In this document: in pieces, positions 8,777 to 59,300 of the stretch
Position numbering within the stretch: position 1 is the stretch's first letter
Layout of the letters: the number at the start of each line of letters is the position of its first letter
Assembly (NCBI GenBank): GCA_000182565.2
Contig: KQ257459.1
DNA: 64,000 nucleotides
Reading direction: 5' to 3' (one strand)
From: Spizellomyces punctatus DAOM BR117
Taxonomy: Eukaryota
The notes under the pieces: model-generated
Database searches by the model: none
What the model was told of the DNA's origin: nothing
Seen by the model: only the letters and a program-made list of their open reading frames with translations
Translations under genes and position numbers: made by a program

Positions 8777-10609
8777 ATGCTCCGGTCCCTACATCCCAAA
8801 TTGCGTCCACTAGCAGAACCGCTGCTGAATGCACGCGATTTGTATGAACTTAAAACTGCCAGACCTTCTACTTATAAAAACCGATCGGAAGGAGAATGTA
8901 CGCGATTTGATGTGGGAGTGAAGTGCGTCGGAGAAGTGCGGTTTCAATGTGAGTGTTTTCTCGTGCCAAACGGTAGCCTGTAGCATGCCGGCAAGAGGGG
9001 AGACGAGGGTAGATGGACTGCGAACTTCTCTCAATAGCTGTTTGTCAATCATTGACTGCTTGTCGTCTCTGCGCTGTGCTCCATAGGTACTGTCATATTC
9101 GATCTGGGTGACTTGGAATTTCCACCCGACCTTGTCTGCGAAGACTTCCCGCTCAAGTATGGCGATATTAGACCTCTCATCGAATGGCGATCTGGCGATA
9201 GAAACGCTCTATGGAAGACCTTTGATGAAATCGGAAAATTGTATCAGGTCAGCTTTGTTGATATATTCTGCCGATCTGTGGAGGGAGGAATACTCAATGT
9301 GCGACCCTCCTACATAGCACTACCAAAGACAGAGAATCACGGAGCTAGGAATTGAAAGGATACAGTTTGACTTGAGTAGCTTTGACCATCAGAAAGTGAG
9401 ATTGGTCCTTACCACTCTATGGGACGTACGCCGTATTGGATTCTCATTGCTTGGGGCTTCCTCGTGCAGGACCTTCAGTGCTTCATGACAGCCCCTGAGT
9501 GGATGTCAACCGACGCAACCGTAAGTGCTCTTATCCGTGCATGTTACCGAGATTTCTGTAATTGAACGGTACTTCTAGATATATATATACATGCCCGTAC
9601 GCGTTGATGACAAGGATGAATCAAATCTTCTGCTTTTGGATATCAACGAGAGCTCTGTTCTCGTAGGTAAATAGCGGCGTTGATATCTCGCTTTCTCAAG
9701 TGTAAGGATTGGGACTGTGCATTGAACGTTCTTTGGCGACTCTAGCACGGCTGACTGTGATGTTCCATGTGTATGAAGGAGAGGTGAAGCAAATCGAAAA
9801 GCAGATACAGCTTCCCCCGCAGTGGAAAGATATATACGTCCCGAAGGTTGGTGAATATTCTGCGCATATGATCCATTATATTGCACACCTTTAATCGTCA
9901 AAATATTGTACCGCACAGATACCTGATTATCCTCTCGATGCGACGTTGTTCGATTATATGCTTGAGGTGCAAAAGTACTTGGCAACTGTGCATTCCAACG
10001 TCATTCAGCGGATCGACAGGAGACGGGAGTTTGTGGAGACCATCGTAGCTACCTTCAGAAGGTAAAGCCAGCATATCATTTTTTCTTAACCCAGTCTGAT
10101 CCTAAGGTCTGAACTCGTTGAGAGTCATATACTTGAATATGACTCGAGAGAGTGGTTTTATGCGTCTTTTTACTTTGAAATTCCACCACCACAGACATCG
10201 CCATCGGATTTGTCACCTGTGGATCGCAAAAACAACTCTAGGGCTGTAGCAAATGGTACGGGCTGGGGCAGCCTATATTGCGCGTGTCCCTCAGGTGTTT
10301 ATGCCTAATATGGATCCTAGTTCATCTGTCCCAGGATTATCCGGACATTCCACCAGAGGTTTTCCTCCAGTCAGCGTCAATGTTTGCAGATGCAGACTCG
10401 TATATACCGGCAACTGTGCGCTTGAACGTCGACTTTGGACTGGTTGGGATGTGGGGGTCGGAAAGGGTCTCGTGCGAGGAAGCAGTTGAACGATTTCGGT
10501 AAGCGGTATTCGGTTATCATGTTTACGACAATTATTTGACCAAAGTTTGATGTCTTTTAGTAATGCGTTACTGGAGCAGATACCCACTGCATTCGCATGC
10601 ATCCCATGA
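8777..10609 (+). CDS. BABAM2: BRISC and BRCA1-A complex member 2 (BRE/BRCC45) homolog, multi-exon
   Basis: Spliced protein has CTRFDV..VIFDLGDLEFPPDL..EWRSGDRNALWKTFDEIGKLYQHYQ, IPDYPLDATLFDYMLEV..VIQRIDRRREFV..ILEYDS and VHLSQDYPDIPPEVFLQS. These are colinear with animal BRE motifs as I recall them (CDRF, PELPPDF, LIDYVPQV, KRREYI, VEYDAE, FPRDQPTLTFQS). Confidence 0.85.
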
Positions 10610-44390: not shown

Positions 44391-44521
44391 NNNNNNNNNN
44401 NNNNNNNNNNNNNNNNNNNNNNNNNNNNNNNNNNNNNNNNNNNNNNNNNNNNNNNNNNNNNNNNNNNNNNNNNNNNNNNNNNNNNNNNNNNNNNNNNNNN
44501 NNNNNNNNNNNNNNNNNNNNN
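44391..44521. other. Assembly gap (131 N)
   Basis: Run of N. It probably hides the TRAPPC10 start codon and part of the FAM184/TRAPPC10 divergent promoter. Confidence 1.
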
Positions 44522-47500
44522 GAGGCTACCACTACGTAATATCGCCTGGCAAAATCCTCTGCGCATCTCGAGAGGGAACACCAGTGCGCCTCGAGTGATT
44601 AGCGTGCTACAAGCAGACCTGAAAAGATACTCGCCGGACATGTTTCCTCGGGCAATGCCAGGAAGATTGTACCACAGTCCATACTTTTTACATTTGTATT
44701 TGGTTACCACCGATGTAAGTTCTAGCCAGCATGGCGAGTCGGATGGGAAGATATTTCGTTCTCAGAGTCTACCACCTCATGTGTATTATTTTACGAATAT
44801 AAAATACACAATTCTGAGCCTCTTCTCGTTTTGGGATTAGGATAATGAACTTTATAAAACCGTCATACGCAAGCAAATCCAGGACTGGTTGAATGTTGTG
44901 GCGAATAAAAAGAATCAAGAATGGTTGATTGTGTATGTGTCCAGCCCTGAATCGAGAGGAAAATCTGCAAGATTTTTGGGAGTTGGCGCCAGTGTTTTTG
45001 ATCGCATTAAGTCAGATTTCAATTTCAAGAAGGAACGGTGGGTTTATCATGCTAAGGAATGCATGGAATTACGAAGGGTTTTGACTGTAGATTCTACTAG
45101 CTGCGTCCGCGTCAAGCTTTACAATGATGTCAGCAAAGATGCAGACTCGTGGACAGAGCTGCAGAATCATATGAAAGATGGCATTGTAAATAGCTTGAAT
45201 CAACAGATACTCCAATATGATGAGGACACTCGGCGCTTTGATCAACAAAGGCTGATGCCCGGATGGAATTATTGTCAATATTTTATCATGAAAGTACGTT
45301 GTTGGAGGATCCGAAAGCAACGTCAGACTCCGACTGATAGATGTTTGTCCACATAGGAAGGATTGGCGTACACCTTTGAATTGATGAACCTGTTTGATGA
45401 GGCTCTCATACAATATGATGAATTGGAAGCATCCTTCTTTCAAACACTAGCAGGTGGCTATTGAACGGCATATCTAAAGTATGACGCCCATGTAACCTTC
45501 AATATTCAGAGCAGGGCGCTCCCTGGTTCGCAAAGTTTGGTGGCACCGAGCCAGAAGATGACAGTGGGGACATTCTGAATATCAAAAGAAAACCGTACCG
45601 AGATATGATAATGCAAAACACGATCTCCATTTTTGACTTTCGGATGTATTTGTTCGCGCGACAGTGCCAATTACTTTTTCGGATGGGCTATGCCGTAGAC
45701 ATCTGTCAGAGGGCAAAGGTCTTCATTACGCAGTTTGCACGTACAATTCAGGAGCATCAGGTGTGTTCATCAGTTGAGCATGACAGCAACACCTTGCATT
45801 GATATCTTTCGAAGGTATCTTTGATTTCCTGTTTCCGAGAATCGTGGATTTATTCTGCATGCATGAACGTTATTGGGCACTGCGAAGAGTTGGTAGCTGT
45901 CTCAACACTACCCTCCGAGGTTCTCACATTTTATGAGGGCGCAAAGGCGGATTTGTTGCAGTACGCGCGGATGCAGGTAAATAGCGCTAACAGCAGGGCG
46001 AACCGATGCACCGTCCGATCATGTACTTAAAGAACAATAGTTGGATAGCCTAGGATTAGCATCCAACCTTTTCCCCTATTCTATTCATGCAAATATGCGG
46101 GGATTGGAGACTGCCAATCTGGAGCTATTGAACGGGAATGGAGCTGCCCCCAACGTCCAGGTTGACGCAAGAACAGTCGCAGATATTACCAATTCGGAGC
46201 TGAAAGAAGCCATGTCATCTATTGCTGCTTTTGATGATCTGTATCTGGTGAGGTACAATGATTGTCCTACGAAAGGAAACAGTTCTAATGTCAGGGCAGA
46301 AAATCACCAACAGAGCGGTAAAGAGCTGCGACGCGAGTGCACATAGCAGAGCAATGTGGCTTCTGAAAGGCGACATTGCATATTTGCACTAGTGAGTGTC
46401 TCGTCTAAGTTCCTGGTCGCTTCGCCGTCACTCAGAGTAGGCTTATAGCACGCGCAACCGATATGAGGACGCCGCCAGCATATGGGAAACGATGGTCTTC
46501 AAGTACTCTGAGAATGGGTGGACTGGTCTGGATAACCTGGTCATTGAGAAACTTGCAATTTGCCAGAAAACATTGAACCACGTTGCTCAATATCCTTCTC
46601 GCCTCACTTGCTTGATGAACTTCCTATCGTATTGTCCTTAACCAAGGTGTACATATCTCGACTCTTGTCTTCATCTAGTCGTAACTTCCGAGATGCTTTC
46701 TGCGGAACGTGTGTCACATTTTGCAAATGAGTTTTTATGGGCAGCCTCGAATCTTGATCATGGTATGCGATGTCGACCAGATTTTTATGACGCCACGGAG
46801 AAGTTAACTGTTCAGAAGTCATAAAGAAGCAGGACAGCGCCGTAATCAGTGTCGCTATCTTGTCCGTGGTGAACGAAATTGGAGATGATGATGGCTTGGT
46901 GGTTGCCGTCGAAGTTCAAAATCACCTGCCACAGGTTTGCTGCTCAGCTGCGCAGAATGTGAGACCTGCGTACGTTAAAATTGAATAACAGGCTTTCACT
47001 GCGGACGAGCTCCGCTTATCTTTGACTGGTGGTGACATGGGAGACCATCATTGCAGGGCTACCAACCTGAAAGTGGAACCTGGCGCAAACAAAATTCTGT
47101 TGACGGGAGAGGTCAGTTCTCAGTTCAACCTTCTCATCTCACAAACGGTCGCCGGTGCTGAATGATGGTCGACAGAAAATTACAATCTCGGGTACTTATA
47201 CGGTCGGCTTGACGACATTGCAAATTGGAAAGTTGCAGCTCGAGTACCGGAGTAGAACGTCGTTTCGCGTGACTGGCAATCCAGTTCCTGTGAGAATATT
47301 GGCAGGTCTTCCGGACAAAAGTACGACATCATATGCTCTTGTGCGCGGGTCCTTCGTACTGTTTCTGAATAATTTCTGTCGCTCCTCCTAGTAACGTTTG
47401 GTGAAACAAACAACAGTCTGCAGATTAAGTTATTTACCGGCCATCAAGCGATTAAAGGCGGCAGTTTGGTAATTTCTGCGCTCACACCGGTGTCCTTTCC

Positions 47501-49382
47501 TACAATGAAATCTGTACTGTTCCGAACAACGTCCAGTTTAGGTATGCCCCATTCGAAATTGGTCAATGGATACGTCCGATGGCTGACATGATAGTAGAGG
47601 AAACTGCCCACGCGAAAGAGCGTACAATTGATACCACGGAAAACAGAATTCTCCTGCCAGCTTGTGAGCAGCACGAGATGGTCACATTCTACGTTCCTTT
47701 CAACGAATCAAATGACACTATGTCCCATGAACACAAGGTGCCATTTTCGCTTACGGGAACTGGCATTGCTGATCATGAGACTAAGTACAATTTAGCTGAG
47801 AATCCTTTTGGATTACACGACAGAAGGCGACAAACGATTCACATGTGCGGTGATTGAGAGGATTAATCTGTCGCCTTCGTTCGACTTGAATTACTCCATC
47901 ACCTACAGTCCGACTGGGTTAGAGCATGTGCGGAACGTATCGTAGCATAAGTACGCTCAAACCTGGTAATTACTAGGTCTCTCTTGCAATACACTCTGAG
48001 AGGAAACGAATCTGTGCCGATTCGCATTCTGCAAGCAAGGATCGACCTGACCCCTATCCATCAACCTGTAGCGTATTCAGATGTACAGGGAATGGTGAGG
48101 GGCCTTTGCAGAGAACCAATTGGTGCTGTGGGCAAGTTGCTAAACACGTCAGCAGGTGATCTTTCATAGTCAAGTAGTGCCATTACTGTACAAGCTGGAA
48201 CCCAACAATGCACCGCCTTCAGGTTCGTTTAGTGATCCGCAAGTATTTGTTGTAAAGAGCATACCACCGACTGGTGCCTGGATCATCAGATGTCTCCAAG
48301 AAGACGGCAAGCTATGAGCCCTCGGACGTAAAAGTACAGTTGACTTTGAACTATTATTCCTTGAAAGAAGGTTCGTTACTGTTGCAGGGTTTCATAGTGA
48401 TAGGTTCGGGCACAAGGCTAGCATGTTGATGTCCATATCCTACCGTCAGAGCTCGAAGCATATTTGCTAGACAACCTTAGTCGCTGCCTTGTTGAACGTA
48501 ACATGGCCAAATACTCGGCATGTCTTGCTCACTTTGTTCGAGAGAGCATTGTACCGAACATCGACTATCTGTGCTACGCTGTCAAGAAAAGTGTGTCGCT
48601 CCCACCAGTGGACTTACCTGCATTGGAGGCAATCTTGAATTCACAACCTGCACAGATAATCAAGGATATCGGTGATTTTATGAACGATTTTTCAAAGGTT
48701 CGCGCTTGGATGTGTTCTAATAACCGATCAGGCCACAAGCGCTCAAAGTGCCCTGTTAGAAATTTTCGGTAATATCAGAGGCTGATGCGCAGCAAGCGAA
48801 GGGGCTTACCATCAAAACACTCGTATACCACACCGAATCCCCGCTTTGCAAGGTTGCATGAAAGCTGTATTGTATTGCATGGGTGGTTTCCCTCCTGCTA
48901 ACTTCCGGTTTCTTCCCTCCTATAAAGGTGCTCCTCACAGCTAAAGTTAGTGTACGAAAAGCTGCGGCTACGGCTGAAGGTGTCGTCGTGAGCAAGCCTT
49001 TGCCATGCTGTCTGCGAATCACGTCTGCTCAGTGGGAGGACGCGAGCAGCGAGATTCCTCTCATTTACGAGATAACAGTGGACCACACCAGCTGGATGTT
49101 TTCAGGGAAGAGGAAGCAAGCGTTCACGCTAAAGGTATATTGAATGCGCTAGGTTTTGTGAATGCTGCAATCTGAGAAATAATTTCCTTTGGAAAGGCGG
49201 AGGGATCTGCAGAGTTCCCGTTCACCCTCATTCCTGTCAAAACAGGACGACTGCTACTGCCTCAAGTTACTATCCGTAGTTCGTCAACGGTTGTGCAGAC
49301 AGTATATCCCACGAATTCCTTGAGTATCCATAGTTCTGCACCATTGCATGCCCAAATAGCCCTAGGTCTCGCTGACTTTTAA
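44522..49382 (+). CDS. TRAPPC10: TRAPP II subunit TRAPPC10/Trs130; 5' end lies in the gap
   Basis: RLPLRNIAW, PYFLHLYLV, EWLIVYV, VFDRIKSDF, QRLMPGWNYCQYFIMK|EGLAYTFE..ALIQYDELE, ISIFDFRMYLFARQ, WMFSGKRK, LIPVKTGRLLLPQV. Confidence 0.93.
46590..46652 (+). other. U12-type (minor spliceosome) AT-AC intron in TRAPPC10
   Basis: 5' end ATATCCTT, branch site TCCTTAAC at 46635-46642, 3' end GTAC. The intron is 63 nt with an in-frame TAA, and its removal restores CQKTLNHVAQ|YLDSCLHL. Confidence 0.9.
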
Positions 49383-49438
49383 GTGCTAGTACATCATGAC
49401 GTATTATTTATATATTTCCAGCTACCGGTTATTGCTCA

Positions 49439-50039
49439 CTACCAAAACTCCTTGTTCTCTTTTGCGATTCGAGCTTTCTAGATAGATGTGTAGGTGACAG
49501 CTTGCGCTAATGCTAGAACAGTGACCATGGCATACCTCAATTATATAGGTTCCCTCTTTGTACTTTTGGCTCTGCTCAAAGGCAAAAAGATATTTCCAGC
49601 CAACTACTGTGCGACAGACAGTGCAGGAGATATCCGCGACTGTGTGAAGCCCCGTAATAAGGAGCCGATCTTCTTTCGCGCCCACTGCAACGTTTTCACT
49701 TGAAAAAGCATATAGCTCAGCGTAATCACAGGAAAGAATAACAAGACGACGTGCTCACGCAGCACAAAACAGGTACGCCCTTGAAGTTCTTCCCATAAAA
49801 GCTCTCGAGATCAAGTCTTTGAAGCAAGTTAAGGGAATATCGGGAGAAACAAAAATCAAACGATCTGCGAACCTTCATGGCTAGCCAAATGAGCTGCCGT
49901 CAGACAGTCAATGAGTACATTGTAGTCCAGTAGAACTGGCAGTAAACAGCTGCTTCCACCGCTGACACATACTCTGACATTGAAGACATACATATATACA
50001 GTCCCCAGAAAGGTAGGTTAGTCGCTTTGGCGAGGCCAT
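49439..50039 (-). CDS. Yippee/Moh1 zinc-binding protein
   Basis: Spliced protein: [79 protein letters not shown], with two CxxC motifs. Confidence 0.93.
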
Positions 50040-50369: not shown

Positions 50370-53300
50370 ATGTTTGAAAAGTTTATCGCACCGGTGATAA
50401 ATAAGGTGAGCCAATTTGAGGTTTGAGACTTGCGTATAACAGCATGGCTAATATTGCCTTTCTCGCAGGTCCTTGGCGATTATGTTGGAAATTTGGAAAG
50501 TAAACAGCTGAGCATTGGGATATGGCAGGGTACATATCTATATCTGTTTTATAATAATATCGAGATTCTAAACTCGATTGGGCCTGTAGGGGATGTTGCG
50601 CTGCATAACTTGCGATTGAGAAAAGATGCCTTGGATAAATTTAATCTGCCTATTGAAGTTTTGGAAGGTGCGAAGAGGGGCGGCTGTCTAGTATGAATGT
50701 AGCCGTAACATGTGGACTCAAATTGGGAGATCTTAGGTTACCTGGGGGACCTGACACTTAGCATACCGTGGAATGACTTGAAGAACAAGCCAGTAAAGAT
50801 TTTCATCAACAATGTTTATTTGCTGGCGAGACCCAAAGCGGCTGGCGACTACGATCCGATCGAGGAAGATGAACGGATGCAAAAAGCAAAACAGGAACGT
50901 CTTGAAACCGCAGAGATGATCCTAAACCGCAAAAAGGAACCGCAGCTTGGTGAGCTATGATGCTACTGCGAATCTTGCGCCAGGTGACATAACTGAGCGG
51001 TCTGTCATGTCTTTCTAGAGGGAAAACAGAACGATACTACCTTCATGACGCAGCTTGTGACAAAGATCGTTGATAATCTGCAAATAACAATGAAAAACAT
51101 ACATATCCGATATGAGGATAGTTTGAGTAACCCATCAGTGTGTAGCCGTATATTTACTTTCTGATATCGGCTTCTGTATTTAACTCGTTGCTCACATGTC
51201 GTTTCATCTCAGAATCCTTTCTCGGTCGGCATTACTCTAGAAGAGCTCTCCGCGGTGTCATGCGATCAAAATTGGCAGCCGGCATTCATCCATGAACAAA
51301 CTGACATGATTCGAAAGGTAGCCTTCCCGATTGACGTGAATTGCTGCTTTGGGTTCTTATGCATTCACAGCTATCTAGACTTGGGAGCCTTGCTCTGTAT
51401 TTTAACACGCATTCTGAATCATTTTCCGGGAAGTCACCGGAGGAATTTATGAAGATTTTCCATGAATCGGTGCGTCAAATTGTAGCGTCATAATTACATT
51501 GAAGCTAATTTAGGCCATTGCACAAGATCGCAACAGGCGAACGGATTCCAATCAATCAGCAGTACATCTTAAAACCAGTCTCGGGTACTGCAAGAGTATG
51601 TTACCGTTCGATTTGGGCACTGTGACATATCCCATCAACACTTGTGATGCAGCTGAAAACTTACAAGAAACAACCCATTGACGACGCACGTCACACTGCG
51701 TGGTTGGAATTCGACGAGCTAGGCTTTGTCCTGGATAGGGCGCAGTTCACAAACTCAATCTCTCTACTGGGAGCATTTTCGTCCTACCTTCGATCACACA
51801 AGGTACGACTTTACACATTCTTGTCTGTGACTTTGGACTAACGTCCTACATTTGACGTTTGTTCATAGTACCGAAAATTCCGGCCGCCGCGCACGATTAC
51901 ACCAGTCATGGACCCGAAAGCTTGGCTAAAATATGCCGGTCAGTGTTACTTTACCAGAAGCTGTGGAGCGTCTGCTAATTCGAAATCATATCCTCAGCTA
52001 ACTCGATACTGTCCGATATACATGAGAAAAACCGCCGTTGGACATGGGCGTATTTTGAGGAGCGGCGGAAGGATCGTCTCCTCTATATCGAGCTCTACAA
52101 GCGCCAGAAAGAGGGAACCCAGTCCCTGGAGGTAATACCTTGTCTTCCATTTCGCGGATCTATGTAGTGTATCTTATCGGACCACAGGATCGAGTCCTAC
52201 TTAGTGACCTCGAAAGAAAGCTGTCATTTGAGGACATCTTACTCTACAGATCCGTCGCACTATCGCAGATGCGTAAATCAGCACCTACTAGTCCAAGTTA
52301 GTTCAGCAGTTGCTACAAGCGGTATCTTCTATTTCGAAAAAAGTACTTATCTCCCATTGTTCAGCCAAACTCGTCGAAAAGGAAACACCAAAGTCCACCA
52401 CCTGGAGTACTTTGAGCAATTGGTGGGGAGGAACATCGAAAACTGAGGTACTCCAAAGAGTGGTCGGGTTTGTCGTTTCCAGGCATGCTGAGATTCCATG
52501 ATAAACAACTCTTCATTGTAGGCATCAAAGTCTGGAGATAGTTTTCTAACAGACGATCAAATGAAGCAACTGTATGATACCATCGAATTTAATCCAGACG
52601 CGCCTACCGCAGCAGTCGAGCTTCCTCAAGACGTAATGTGGCACGCTCTGAACCTTTCATAGATGGTCCAAAAATAATTGTTTATTCTGGCTTAGGCGGT
52701 TCTCGTCAGCCTGCGGTCCCATTTGAAAAGTGGCTCACTGGCACTGAAAGATGCGCCCTCGGGTGCGGATACTTCTCTAATGTCTCTCATCTTCCAAGAC
52801 TTCCGTGCTAACGTGACGCAATATGTCGCGTCTTTGATGGGAAATATTACCTTGGGCAATATGGTTCTTAATGACAGCACCACCCCGGGGACTCTCTACC
52901 CGACGCTGATACAGGCGAAAAATAGAAAGGAAGATTTAGAAGCCAAGTGAGTCACGCGTCCTTTTTCAAAACTCTCTCTCAATACCAACCTCCGGCATAG
53001 GGAGCTGCAAGGCCCCTTCTTCAAGATGCAAGTTGAACATAACCCGTTAGATGGCCGAGCAGATGATGCCGTCTCGATCGTGATGTTACCTCTGCAAGTT
53101 GTCTATAACCCTGTTGCCATTAATACATTGGTCGGATTTTTCACACCCCCGCCCTCAGAGTTTGACATGGTGTCGACAATTCAGGTAAGCGCCCTCTGTT
53201 AGAAAGCGTATTTCGTAAGATTTTTATCGATCTCCCACAGGCCGTCGCGCAAGACACATTTGAAGGATTGACCGCGCAAACCAGGGCAGGGCTGGCTTAT

Positions 53301-56300: not shown

Positions 56301-59300
56301 GTGCCATTTATTCAAGACTTCGACCTGACGCTGTCAATGGACAACCGAATGACGGCTCCTGGGCATAGTTTGAGCAACATCAATGTCGATCTTGCACCCG
56401 TTATGCTCAGAGTCTCTTATCGCGACATGTTGCTAATAACGGAGATCGTAACGGGGGTTAACACTCATTGGGCCGCATCGAATGCCGAAGGTTCCGCCGC
56501 CTCTGATACAAGCACGGAAGAAACCCAGGTAGTTTCAGCGCAAGAAAAGGTCATCATGGCGCGAGAAAGGGTATGTCAATGAATCTCGATGGCTCTATCG
56601 GTGTGATAGCTGCTCATTATTGCCACCCAGCTGCACGCGACTGTACAAGGATTCAGACTTGTGTTGATTGATGATCTCAATGATTTGCATTTACCTATGT
56701 TGGACATCATTATGGACAAACTCGTGATTGATCTGGCTGACTGGACGTCTACAGTAAGTTCGCATATGGCTCTCAGCAATACAAGCAAGAACATATACTA
56801 ACTGTAATGATAGATGCGGTTAGAGACTGCTCCATCACTATCCTGCAACTACTTCAATGTCAAGAATTCTCATTGGGAACCACTTATCGAGCCGTGGCAG
56901 TTTTTCATTAACGTAAGTGTCTAGCATAACTCTTGAGATTGTATGGCATGTGTGGACTCCGTTGTAACGCACTAGAGGCGTGTCATAGCTTGGCCGACAA
57001 TCTGCTACAGGAACGCTGTCGTTAGACGCATTCGCTAGAAAACGCCTCGAGGTCAACGTGACACACACATTTGTAGAAACTGTCCTAAGCACACTACACT
57101 TATGGAACAAGCAAGAAAGGGTACATGCAGCTTGAGACTGCACGTTTTCAACTATTGTATGCTGATTGAGCTCATCTACCCTGTCATGGAAATTCCCATG
57201 AATAGAGAGATCTCACCTCTCGAAGAGGCATGCACGCTCCCTACGTATTTCGAAATCGTACTGGTTACGACCTGTACGTCTGGGCAGACTCTGCGGATAG
57301 TGGCCTAGATACCGAATTGAAACAGCTTGCCAATGGACAAGATATGCAATGGCGGTTCGAGGATTGGCGAACCATGCGGGAGGTATGTTAATATTGACAA
57401 TTGTCGCCAACCATTTGTGGGACTTATTAAGTCCAAAATTCATTCAGAGAACAGTCCCAATATCGAACAAAGTGTCTCTCCAGTTGAACGGTCCCTCGTG
57501 GGAGACTTTGAAGGGCATTTCATTGGACCGGGAGGGAATGAGAACTTACATCTTACGACCCGCAATCAATCGTGTAGTCCATCGACTCGTATGTGAAGTG
57601 AAATTGAAGGATAACGTTAAAATTGTTACATTCCGTTCCGGATTGGAGCTGCAAAATGATACTAGCGTGACTGTCGATATGGTGGTGGTGAACAGTAAGA
57701 AACAGCGCACGACTAATGTCACTACCATTGGTACGCAAATGTCTTCTCATATCTCCTCATGCATCATGCTAAGTGACCGGTTTCCAGTTCCGGGGGAAGA
57801 GTTTTATGTTCCTATTGAGGCGTCTTATTATGATATGGTGCAAGTTCGGCCACACGGTAAGGTCTTGACACCGATTCGTTCTTGCTTGTTGTTAATATCA
57901 CATCTGCAAAAGGATTTGGATACGATTGGAGCACAGAGATCATCTTCTGGAAAGATCTGCAAAAACAGAAAGTCTGTGAGTATTAGTAGACCCAAAGTAG
58001 ATTGCGATATTTTTACGGTTGCGCTAATCCTTTAAGGGTGGCAGCTCTAATCACTTGCCGATCCACTGATCCCACGGCTCCCGCGTTTCGATTTCAACTG
58101 AACTGTGTTTACACGCACGGTACAAAAGACAGGTATGCCTAGGAGTGCAAATGTACTTGCCGTGCAGTCTTCAAAGCTCACAAACATGTCGTGTCTCCAG
58201 CACGTATCCAATGATGACAGTGAAGCTATTGCCGCCATTTCAACTAGAGAATCTGTTACCCTACGATATGCGCTATTCTTTGCACGACAAAACTGCAAGG
58301 CAGCAGCACACGGAAGTTCTGCGCAAGGGGGATCTACAGCCTATCCACACGGTAGATCCTACCCATCTGCTCGCCCTGGGCGTCGAGATCCCGGACTCCG
58401 GTAAGTGTTTCTGTTACACAGTTCACACGCTACCGTTGTGAGGGTCTTCGGCTTAGTCTATCACCTCAGCTTATCGACCCAGCGAAGTCGCCATCATCAC
58501 GAACTCTGAACTTGATTATCGCGACGAGACATTACGACTGGCTGATCCAAATGGGCAGCAGTTACTTTTGCGAATAAAATATCAGTAAGTTCGGCCCCCG
58601 CTTCTGAACGATAGGGCAAATATTTAATCACAACTTGAATATATTCAGAGATAAATTGGATATGCGCGGTCGCACAGTCAGCATCTACAGTCCATATGTT
58701 CTATTGAATAAGACGGGGGTGGACATGATATTCAGCACACGATCTTTGATGGGCGTCACACGCTACACAAGCCCTGCTGGTGAGTTTGTGCATTGTGATA
58801 GAAGAGAGCGAATCATCGCCAATGCTAATTCTCTATCTTCATTATCAGCAAATGAAAAAGAGGAGGTGCGGTGTACTACTCGTTTTTATGCAGTCAGCAA
58901 GCTAATCTCATCGTTATTGCAGGTCAAGCCTCTGCTTTTCTCCTTCCCGAATTTTGAACCACTTCGGTCGCGCGTGCAAGTCAAGGTTCTTCCAAACTCC
59001 GACTGGAGTAAGGTAAGTTGCCAAAACTGCCCTTGCTCCGTATCTACCGCACCAGTATGGTGAGCACTCACGTCGTCTGAAGCCCATTAGTTTCGATGCT
59101 GTGGGCAGCTCATTCGAAATATCTATATCCTCCTCGAAAACACGAACAGAAACACATATTGGGGCTACCATCAGAGAGGGAGAAGGAAAGGTAGGATTTT
59201 TGATACGATATTATCTGATATTTCCGACTAATGATGCCGCATCTCGATACAGTACTTCCTCACCAAAGTAGTGACCTTTGCCCCACGTTTCATTTTCAAA

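Follow-up and report, generated by a model that had tools for sequence, protein, structure and literature searches.

The window, that is, the whole stretch of DNA analyzed here, comprises 64,000 nucleotides of contig KQ257459.1 from Spizellomyces punctatus DAOM BR117 and contains, on the plus strand, the visible part of a TRAPPC10 gene (44522..49382). The identification of this gene as a fungal TRAPPC10, made in the original prediction, is borne out by Pfam domains at both ends of the product, namely PF23036 on the N-terminal pieces (E-values of 7.3e-33 and 1.1e-17) and PF12584 on the last exon (25.7 bits, with a cut-off of 22.5), as well as by full-length annotated homologs that are collinear with 44523-49379 in tblastn searches. 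The closest proteins all come from chytrids of the order Spizellomycetales, the best being that of Spizellomyces sp. 'palustris' (85% over 150 aa), followed by those of Gaertneriomyces, Phlyctochytrium, Powellomyces and Geranomyces; no TRAPPC10 protein of the window's own species was found in the protein collection searched. The 5' end of the gene is masked by a run of 131 Ns (44391-44521) and, given that residue 33 of the homologs aligns at 44523, the start codon and approximately the first 32 codons are unreadable, lying in or before this run.

Two sequencing runs contributed information on splicing in the window. X8, an RNA run labelled as the same species, consists of 60-nt reads, approximately 6% of which were read; the library type of X7 is not on record, but X7 includes spliced contigs, as a transcriptome would. 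Downstream of TRAPPC10 and tail to tail with it, the minus strand carries a gene of the Yippee/Mis18 family (49422-49754; PF03226, 26.8 bits, cut-off 26.6), in which an intron of 58 nt (49478-49535, CT..AC on the plus strand) was skipped in 8 X8 reads, and the bin with this intron had the highest coverage of all bins to which reads mapped. Further downstream, the fragment 50709-50960 matched VPS13_N with 61 bits, short of the family cut-off (80). In the region 58780-58922 (plus strand), positions 58779 and 58921 are linked in an X7 contig through 15 intervening letters, which match window positions 58849-58863; in the window, ...ATCAG stands ahead of these positions and AG|GTGCGG after them. 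This arrangement looks like a microexon of approximately 17 nt (58849-58865) between GT-AG introns of 69 nt and 57 nt, and the candidate microexon probably belongs to a long plus-strand gene with the VPS13_N-matching N-terminus.

Six introns of TRAPPC10 that surround the region of interest are all of the GT-AG type and range from 52 to 64 nt in length (45454-45509, 45977-46040, 46248-46299, 46392-46448, 46763-46815 and 47112-47175, all on the plus strand). The intron at 46392-46448 (57 nt, in frame and containing stops) is removed in an X7 contig with the joint 46391^46449 (depth 12.7, side 93). The intron at 46763-46815 (53 nt, GTATGC...TGTTCAG) was deduced from the reading frame and homology rather than from RNA; no other GT-AG candidate in that place has a good 5' site. 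Between these two introns lie two exons. The upstream exon (46449..46589, plus strand), the 5' edge of which is set by the X7 joint, is supported by homology and ends in ...TLNHVAQ with the partial codon CA-; a search with this exon (46 aa) against the longer proteins in the collection yielded no scored match. The downstream exon (46653..46762, plus strand), likewise supported by homology, begins with the remaining codon position and reads (-A)YLDSCLHLVVTSEMLSAERVSHFANEFLWAASNLDH, its 3' edge being provided by the GT-AG candidate at 46763-46815.

The two exons are separated by a 63-nt segment (46590..46652, plus strand), for which the original prediction proposed an AT-AC intron of the minor (U12-type) spliceosome, and its description of the motifs proved exact to the base when the sequence and translations were read again. 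The segment opens with the 8-mer ATATCCTT (46590-46597), contains the 8-mer TCCTTAAC at 46635-46642, the end of which is 10 nt from the 3' end of the segment, and terminates in AC (46651-46652). The spacer CAAGGTGTAC between this box and the 3' splice site (46643..46652) includes only 4 pyrimidines among its 10 nucleotides, none of them adjacent, and thus is no polypyrimidine tract. The candidate branch adenosines would be 46640 and 46641, 11-12 nt ahead of the 3' junction. The usual optimum for the branch box of U12-type introns is approximately 10-15 nt from the 3' splice site. In Bartschat and Samuelsson (2010, PMC2846911), the consensus of U12 AT-AC introns is given as /RTATCCTTT at the 5' splice site and UCCUUAACU at the branch site, with no pyrimidine tract, and the scoring scheme admits a branch box at -40 to -5, a range that includes the box of this segment. 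The predicted 5' splice site ATATCCTTC (46590..46598, plus strand) and the branch-site box TCCTTAACC (46635..46643, plus strand) each agree with the respective consensus in 8 of 9 positions (PMC2846911), so that the recognition sequences named in the original prediction correspond to the consensus given there.

Conceptual joining of 46589 to 46653 creates a CAA (Gln) codon split as CA|A, that is, in phase 2, and the spliced translation reads ...TLNHVAQYLDSCLHLV..., i.e. ...TLNHVAQ|YLDSCLH..., which reproduces the continuous NHVAQ|YLDSC in phase 2 that had been predicted. The unspliced translation runs into an in-frame TAA at 46639..46641 (plus strand). The original description of a broken TRAPPC10 frame accordingly stands with respect to the stop, but not in the sense of a frameshift: a length of 63 nt is divisible by three and leaves the frame unshifted, and only the TAA breaks it. 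Because this codon is the sole break, we also weighed the possibilities that the stop is read through and that the segment is an insertion or an error.

The segment was compared with homologs by tblastn of 14 proteins against the window, 13 of which reach the site, the remaining one (P0001) being too short. The 21 codons of 46590-46652 are missing from all 13: nine proteins show a single clean gap of 21 residues (P0002, P0003, P0004, P0005, P0006, P0007, P0014, P0026 and P0031), in P0009 the gap comprises 22 residues and is offset by one, in P0017 and P0020 the gap totals 21 residues but is split into pieces, and the alignment of P0016 breaks off at the junction. The flanking residues are conserved (...Q|YL.SCLHLV); for instance, KLQRTTQ|YLEVCLHIV in Phlyctochytrium aligns with TLNHVAQ|YLDSCLHLV in the window. 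Among the in-frame deletions with GT, GC or AT at the start and AG or AC at the end that were enumerated, 46590-46652 alone takes out precisely the 21 codons absent from the homologs. An AT-AG candidate, 46590-46646, is also in frame but was rejected, as its AG lies 4 nt past the branch box and its use would add Cys-Thr, which the homologs lack.

Taken singly, the two boxes are not rare in the window, where TCCTTAAC occurs near the chance rate (2 found, 1.55 expected) and ATATCCTT is mildly over-represented (5 found, 1.87 expected, with 5 reached in 2 of 100 shuffles). The full arrangement, ATATCCTT-N20-50-TCCTTAAC-N6-14-AC, occurs once in the 64 kb when both strands are considered and in none of 100 dinucleotide-preserving shuffles, and this single occurrence coincides exactly with the 21-residue gap left by the homologs. 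The other eight copies of RTATCC(T/C)T in the window, at 821, 19612, 27087, 34192 and 61044 on the plus strand and at 9363, 17976 and 48669 on the minus strand, lack a suitably placed branch box ahead of a usable 3' end. The other four copies of ATATCCTT (821, 17976(-), 27087 and 48669(-)) are not intron-like. Two of these sites match a relaxed U12 pattern and were rejected, 821 on the plus strand because it sits in an uninterrupted open reading frame and 48669 on the minus strand because it is on the wrong strand, antisense to TRAPPC10.

With the motifs, the frame, the homologs and a length in keeping with the local introns considered together, we regard it as very probable that 46590-46652 is a genuine AT-AC U12-type intron in phase 2 within TRAPPC10 of a chytrid belonging to Spizellomycetales. 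The assignment of excision to exactly these bases comes from homology, not from observation, and the intron is predicted to depend on the minor spliceosome.

Comparison with the U2-type introns of the same gene bears on whether the major spliceosome could instead remove the segment at 46589^46653 by acting on non-canonical AT-AC ends. Four of these introns (46248-46299, 46392-46448, 46763-46815 and 47112-47175) resemble the AT-AC intron in length and in G+C content (0.41-0.53) and differ from it in starting with GTGAGG, GTGAGT, GTATGC and GTCAGT, respectively, in ending with AG and in lacking the TCCTTAAC box. With neighbouring introns of 52-64 nt, a 63-nt AT-AC intron is of typical length for this genome, as would be expected if the U2-type machinery processed it. 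The TTAAC near the 3' end of the segment is also similar to a branch site in an adjacent U2-type intron, GTTAAC being found 8 nt ahead of the AG in 46763-46815; because TTAAC suits a fungal U2-type branch site as well, the branch box alone discriminates less than the 5' site does. The 5' site speaks against the major spliceosome, since ATATCCTTC follows the U12 consensus instead of looking like a GTRAGT site in which G was changed to A; furthermore, there is no pyrimidine tract, and the TCCTTAAC box exceeds what a U2 branch site needs. Removal of the segment by the major spliceosome thus appears highly unlikely.

The conserved sequence downstream of the segment is pertinent to GT-AG introns that might be used nearby, in which case the U12-like motifs would be coincidental. 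The alternative at 46582-46646 shifts the frame into a stop, in agreement with the original prediction. The frame stays open with either 46582-46692 or 46634-46678, which is in their favour; nevertheless, both would delete the conserved YLDSCLHLV block, contrary to the 13 homolog alignments, and 46582-46692 would delete VAQ as well, whereas 46634-46678 would retain 15 non-homologous residues. Both candidates also have poor 5' sites (GTTGCTCA and GTCCTTAA), and coincidence as the source of the motif arrangement is at odds with its occurrence in 0 of 100 shuffles, so that we consider the use of such a GT-AG intron most improbable.

Contigs and reads bear on a third explanation, namely, that the segment is kept, the gene being a pseudogene or an allele with a 63-nt stop-bearing insertion, or the assembly being in error. 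The joint 46589^46653 was not seen among the joints listed for the X8 reads, the depth of which over the bin with the intron is ~0.7+0.3, or for the X7 contigs; this result, together with the fact that no protein of the same species was found in the collection for comparison, is compatible with such an explanation. One X7 contig breaks off 55 letters away from 46707, a point equidistant from both ends of exon 46653-46762, and for this reason the boundary at which it stops is ambiguous. The neighbouring intron 46392-46448, in contrast, is spliced in X7 contigs, and elsewhere the gene retains an open, conserved frame over ~4.9 kb, both of which argue against this explanation. Across 45735-47312, a contig from X2, a run that may share its sample with the window, shows no difference from the window; it reproduces the DNA, so the TAA is no isolated assembly error. 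A chance insertion carrying both U12 boxes at the right spacing would also be very unlikely, judging from the shuffles, and retention of the segment in any of these forms accordingly seems just as improbable as the use of a nearby GT-AG intron. Finally, translation of the 63 nt by readthrough or recoding of the TAA, yielding a lineage-specific insert of 21 residues (covering YPSRLTCLMNFLSYCP), would fit a length that is a multiple of three and the presence of a single stop, but the insert is found in no homolog, the translation with TAA as X found no candidate among the collection proteins of 57-182 aa (weak evidence), and the remaining genes of the window treat TAA as a normal stop, both by ending at it and by avoiding it, according to the list of open reading frames, so that the probability of this explanation is close to negligible.

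Separately, a single contig of 232 nt from X1, a run recorded as RNA of a root metagenome, is identical to a TRAPPC10 exon (45514-45745), from which it follows that the window's organism, or a nearly identical one, was present in that sample.

The age of the proposed AT-AC intron was approached through 47 fungal TRAPPC10 loci obtained in a metagenome scan, a set that includes several duplicates, contains no close relative among the chytrids and in which three loci (L001-L003) are apparently intron-free throughout. A segment of 135 residues around the site was matched by 26 of the 47 loci, the other 21 falling short of the region; an intron at the AT-AC position is absent in 24 of the 24 loci in which the coding sequence clearly crosses the site, with L046 covering the site marginally (3 residues) and L011 stopping short. 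A relaxed U12 pattern matched once, on the minus strand of L004, in the 269,884 bases of these 47 related fungal loci searched on both strands. An intron at this position was thus found in none of the other fungal TRAPPC10 loci examined, and the comparison shows no conservation of the AT-AC intron; conservation of position would support U12-type status but is not a defining requirement for it. The position of the GT-AG intron 46392-46448 (after DIA.L) coincides with in-frame interruptions in all six distant loci with displayed alignments across it (L006, L027, L031, L039, L045 and L046), which indicates an old and widely shared intron position.

The AT-AC intron could therefore be either an old minor intron that was lost elsewhere or a lineage-specific gain. 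The AT-AC position is free of introns in the other fungal loci examined and the neighbouring GT-AG position is widely shared, a combination from which one can argue that the U12-type intron was gained in Spizellomycetales and is not an ancestral relic. To our knowledge, gains of minor introns outside Physarum are regarded as very rare. On balance, a gain in this order appears unlikely.

A search for structured RNAs yielded no Rfam match at E<=1 across the 64-kb window. Minor snRNAs and minor introns have been published for Spizellomyces punctatus (Davila Lopez et al. 2008, PMC2396436; Larue and Roy 2023, PMC10639083), and it is from this published work that the working U11/U12/U4atac/U6atac system presumed in the original prediction draws its support. 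AT-AC U12-type introns, defined in animals and plants, are also reported from Rhizopus, Phytophthora and Acanthamoeba (PMC2396436, PMC2846911). With these introns, the TRAPPC10 segment shares the ATATCCTT start, the TCCTTAAC box near the 3' end, the absence of a pyrimidine tract, the AT-AC termini and a non-zero phase; it differs from them in being short (63 nt), like the ordinary introns of its host, and in being known here from sequence alone. Compared with the minor introns described for Spizellomyces punctatus and other early-diverging fungi, the order and the kind of intron are the same, and so, probably, is the genus. We found no literature joining TRAPPC10 with 'minor intron' or 'U12-type', in a search that did not extend to the supplements of the surveys, where the intron is possibly listed. 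Given the earlier records of minor introns from this fungal group, the TRAPPC10 intron is a neat but unsurprising example, and the known distribution of the minor spliceosome is unchanged, its presence in the lineage having been established in 2008 and 2023.

Several public models of the gene are short. The TRAPPC10 model of Spizellomyces sp. 'palustris' (P0001, 478 aa) aligns to 46041-46259, runs into the equivalent of intron 46248-46299 and ends there, and so looks cut to under half of TRAPPC10; P0010 (506 aa) and several further chytrid models are likewise short. The expectation in the original prediction that annotation limited to GT-AG introns mis-models this gene is plausible, but the truncated 'palustris' model does not exemplify it, given that this model ends upstream of the AT-AC site, at the equivalent of a GT-AG intron.

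If the AT-AC intron is processed as proposed, the steps, modelled on what is established about the minor spliceosome, would be as follows. The U11/U12 di-snRNP would recognize ATATCCTT (through U11) and TCCTTAAC (through U12) jointly, bulging A 46640 or 46641; the U4atac/U6atac.U5 complex would then join, with U6atac taking the place of U11 at the 5' site, and two transesterifications would link 46589 to 46653, restoring the CAA codon for Gln and the sequence ...NHVAQ-YLDSCLHLV.... Were the intron retained, the TAA 17 codons into it would truncate the protein at approximately residue 545 of about 1150. The notion in the original prediction that minor splicing gates a trafficking gene is speculation.

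The segment 46590-46652 would thus represent a clean chytrid example of an AT-AC minor intron within a conserved trafficking gene, and a site at which gene prediction confined to GT-AG introns will be expected to truncate or split TRAPPC10. In a chytrid lineage with published minor introns, the junction 46589^46653 may serve as a convenient single-junction assay of the activity of the minor spliceosome.
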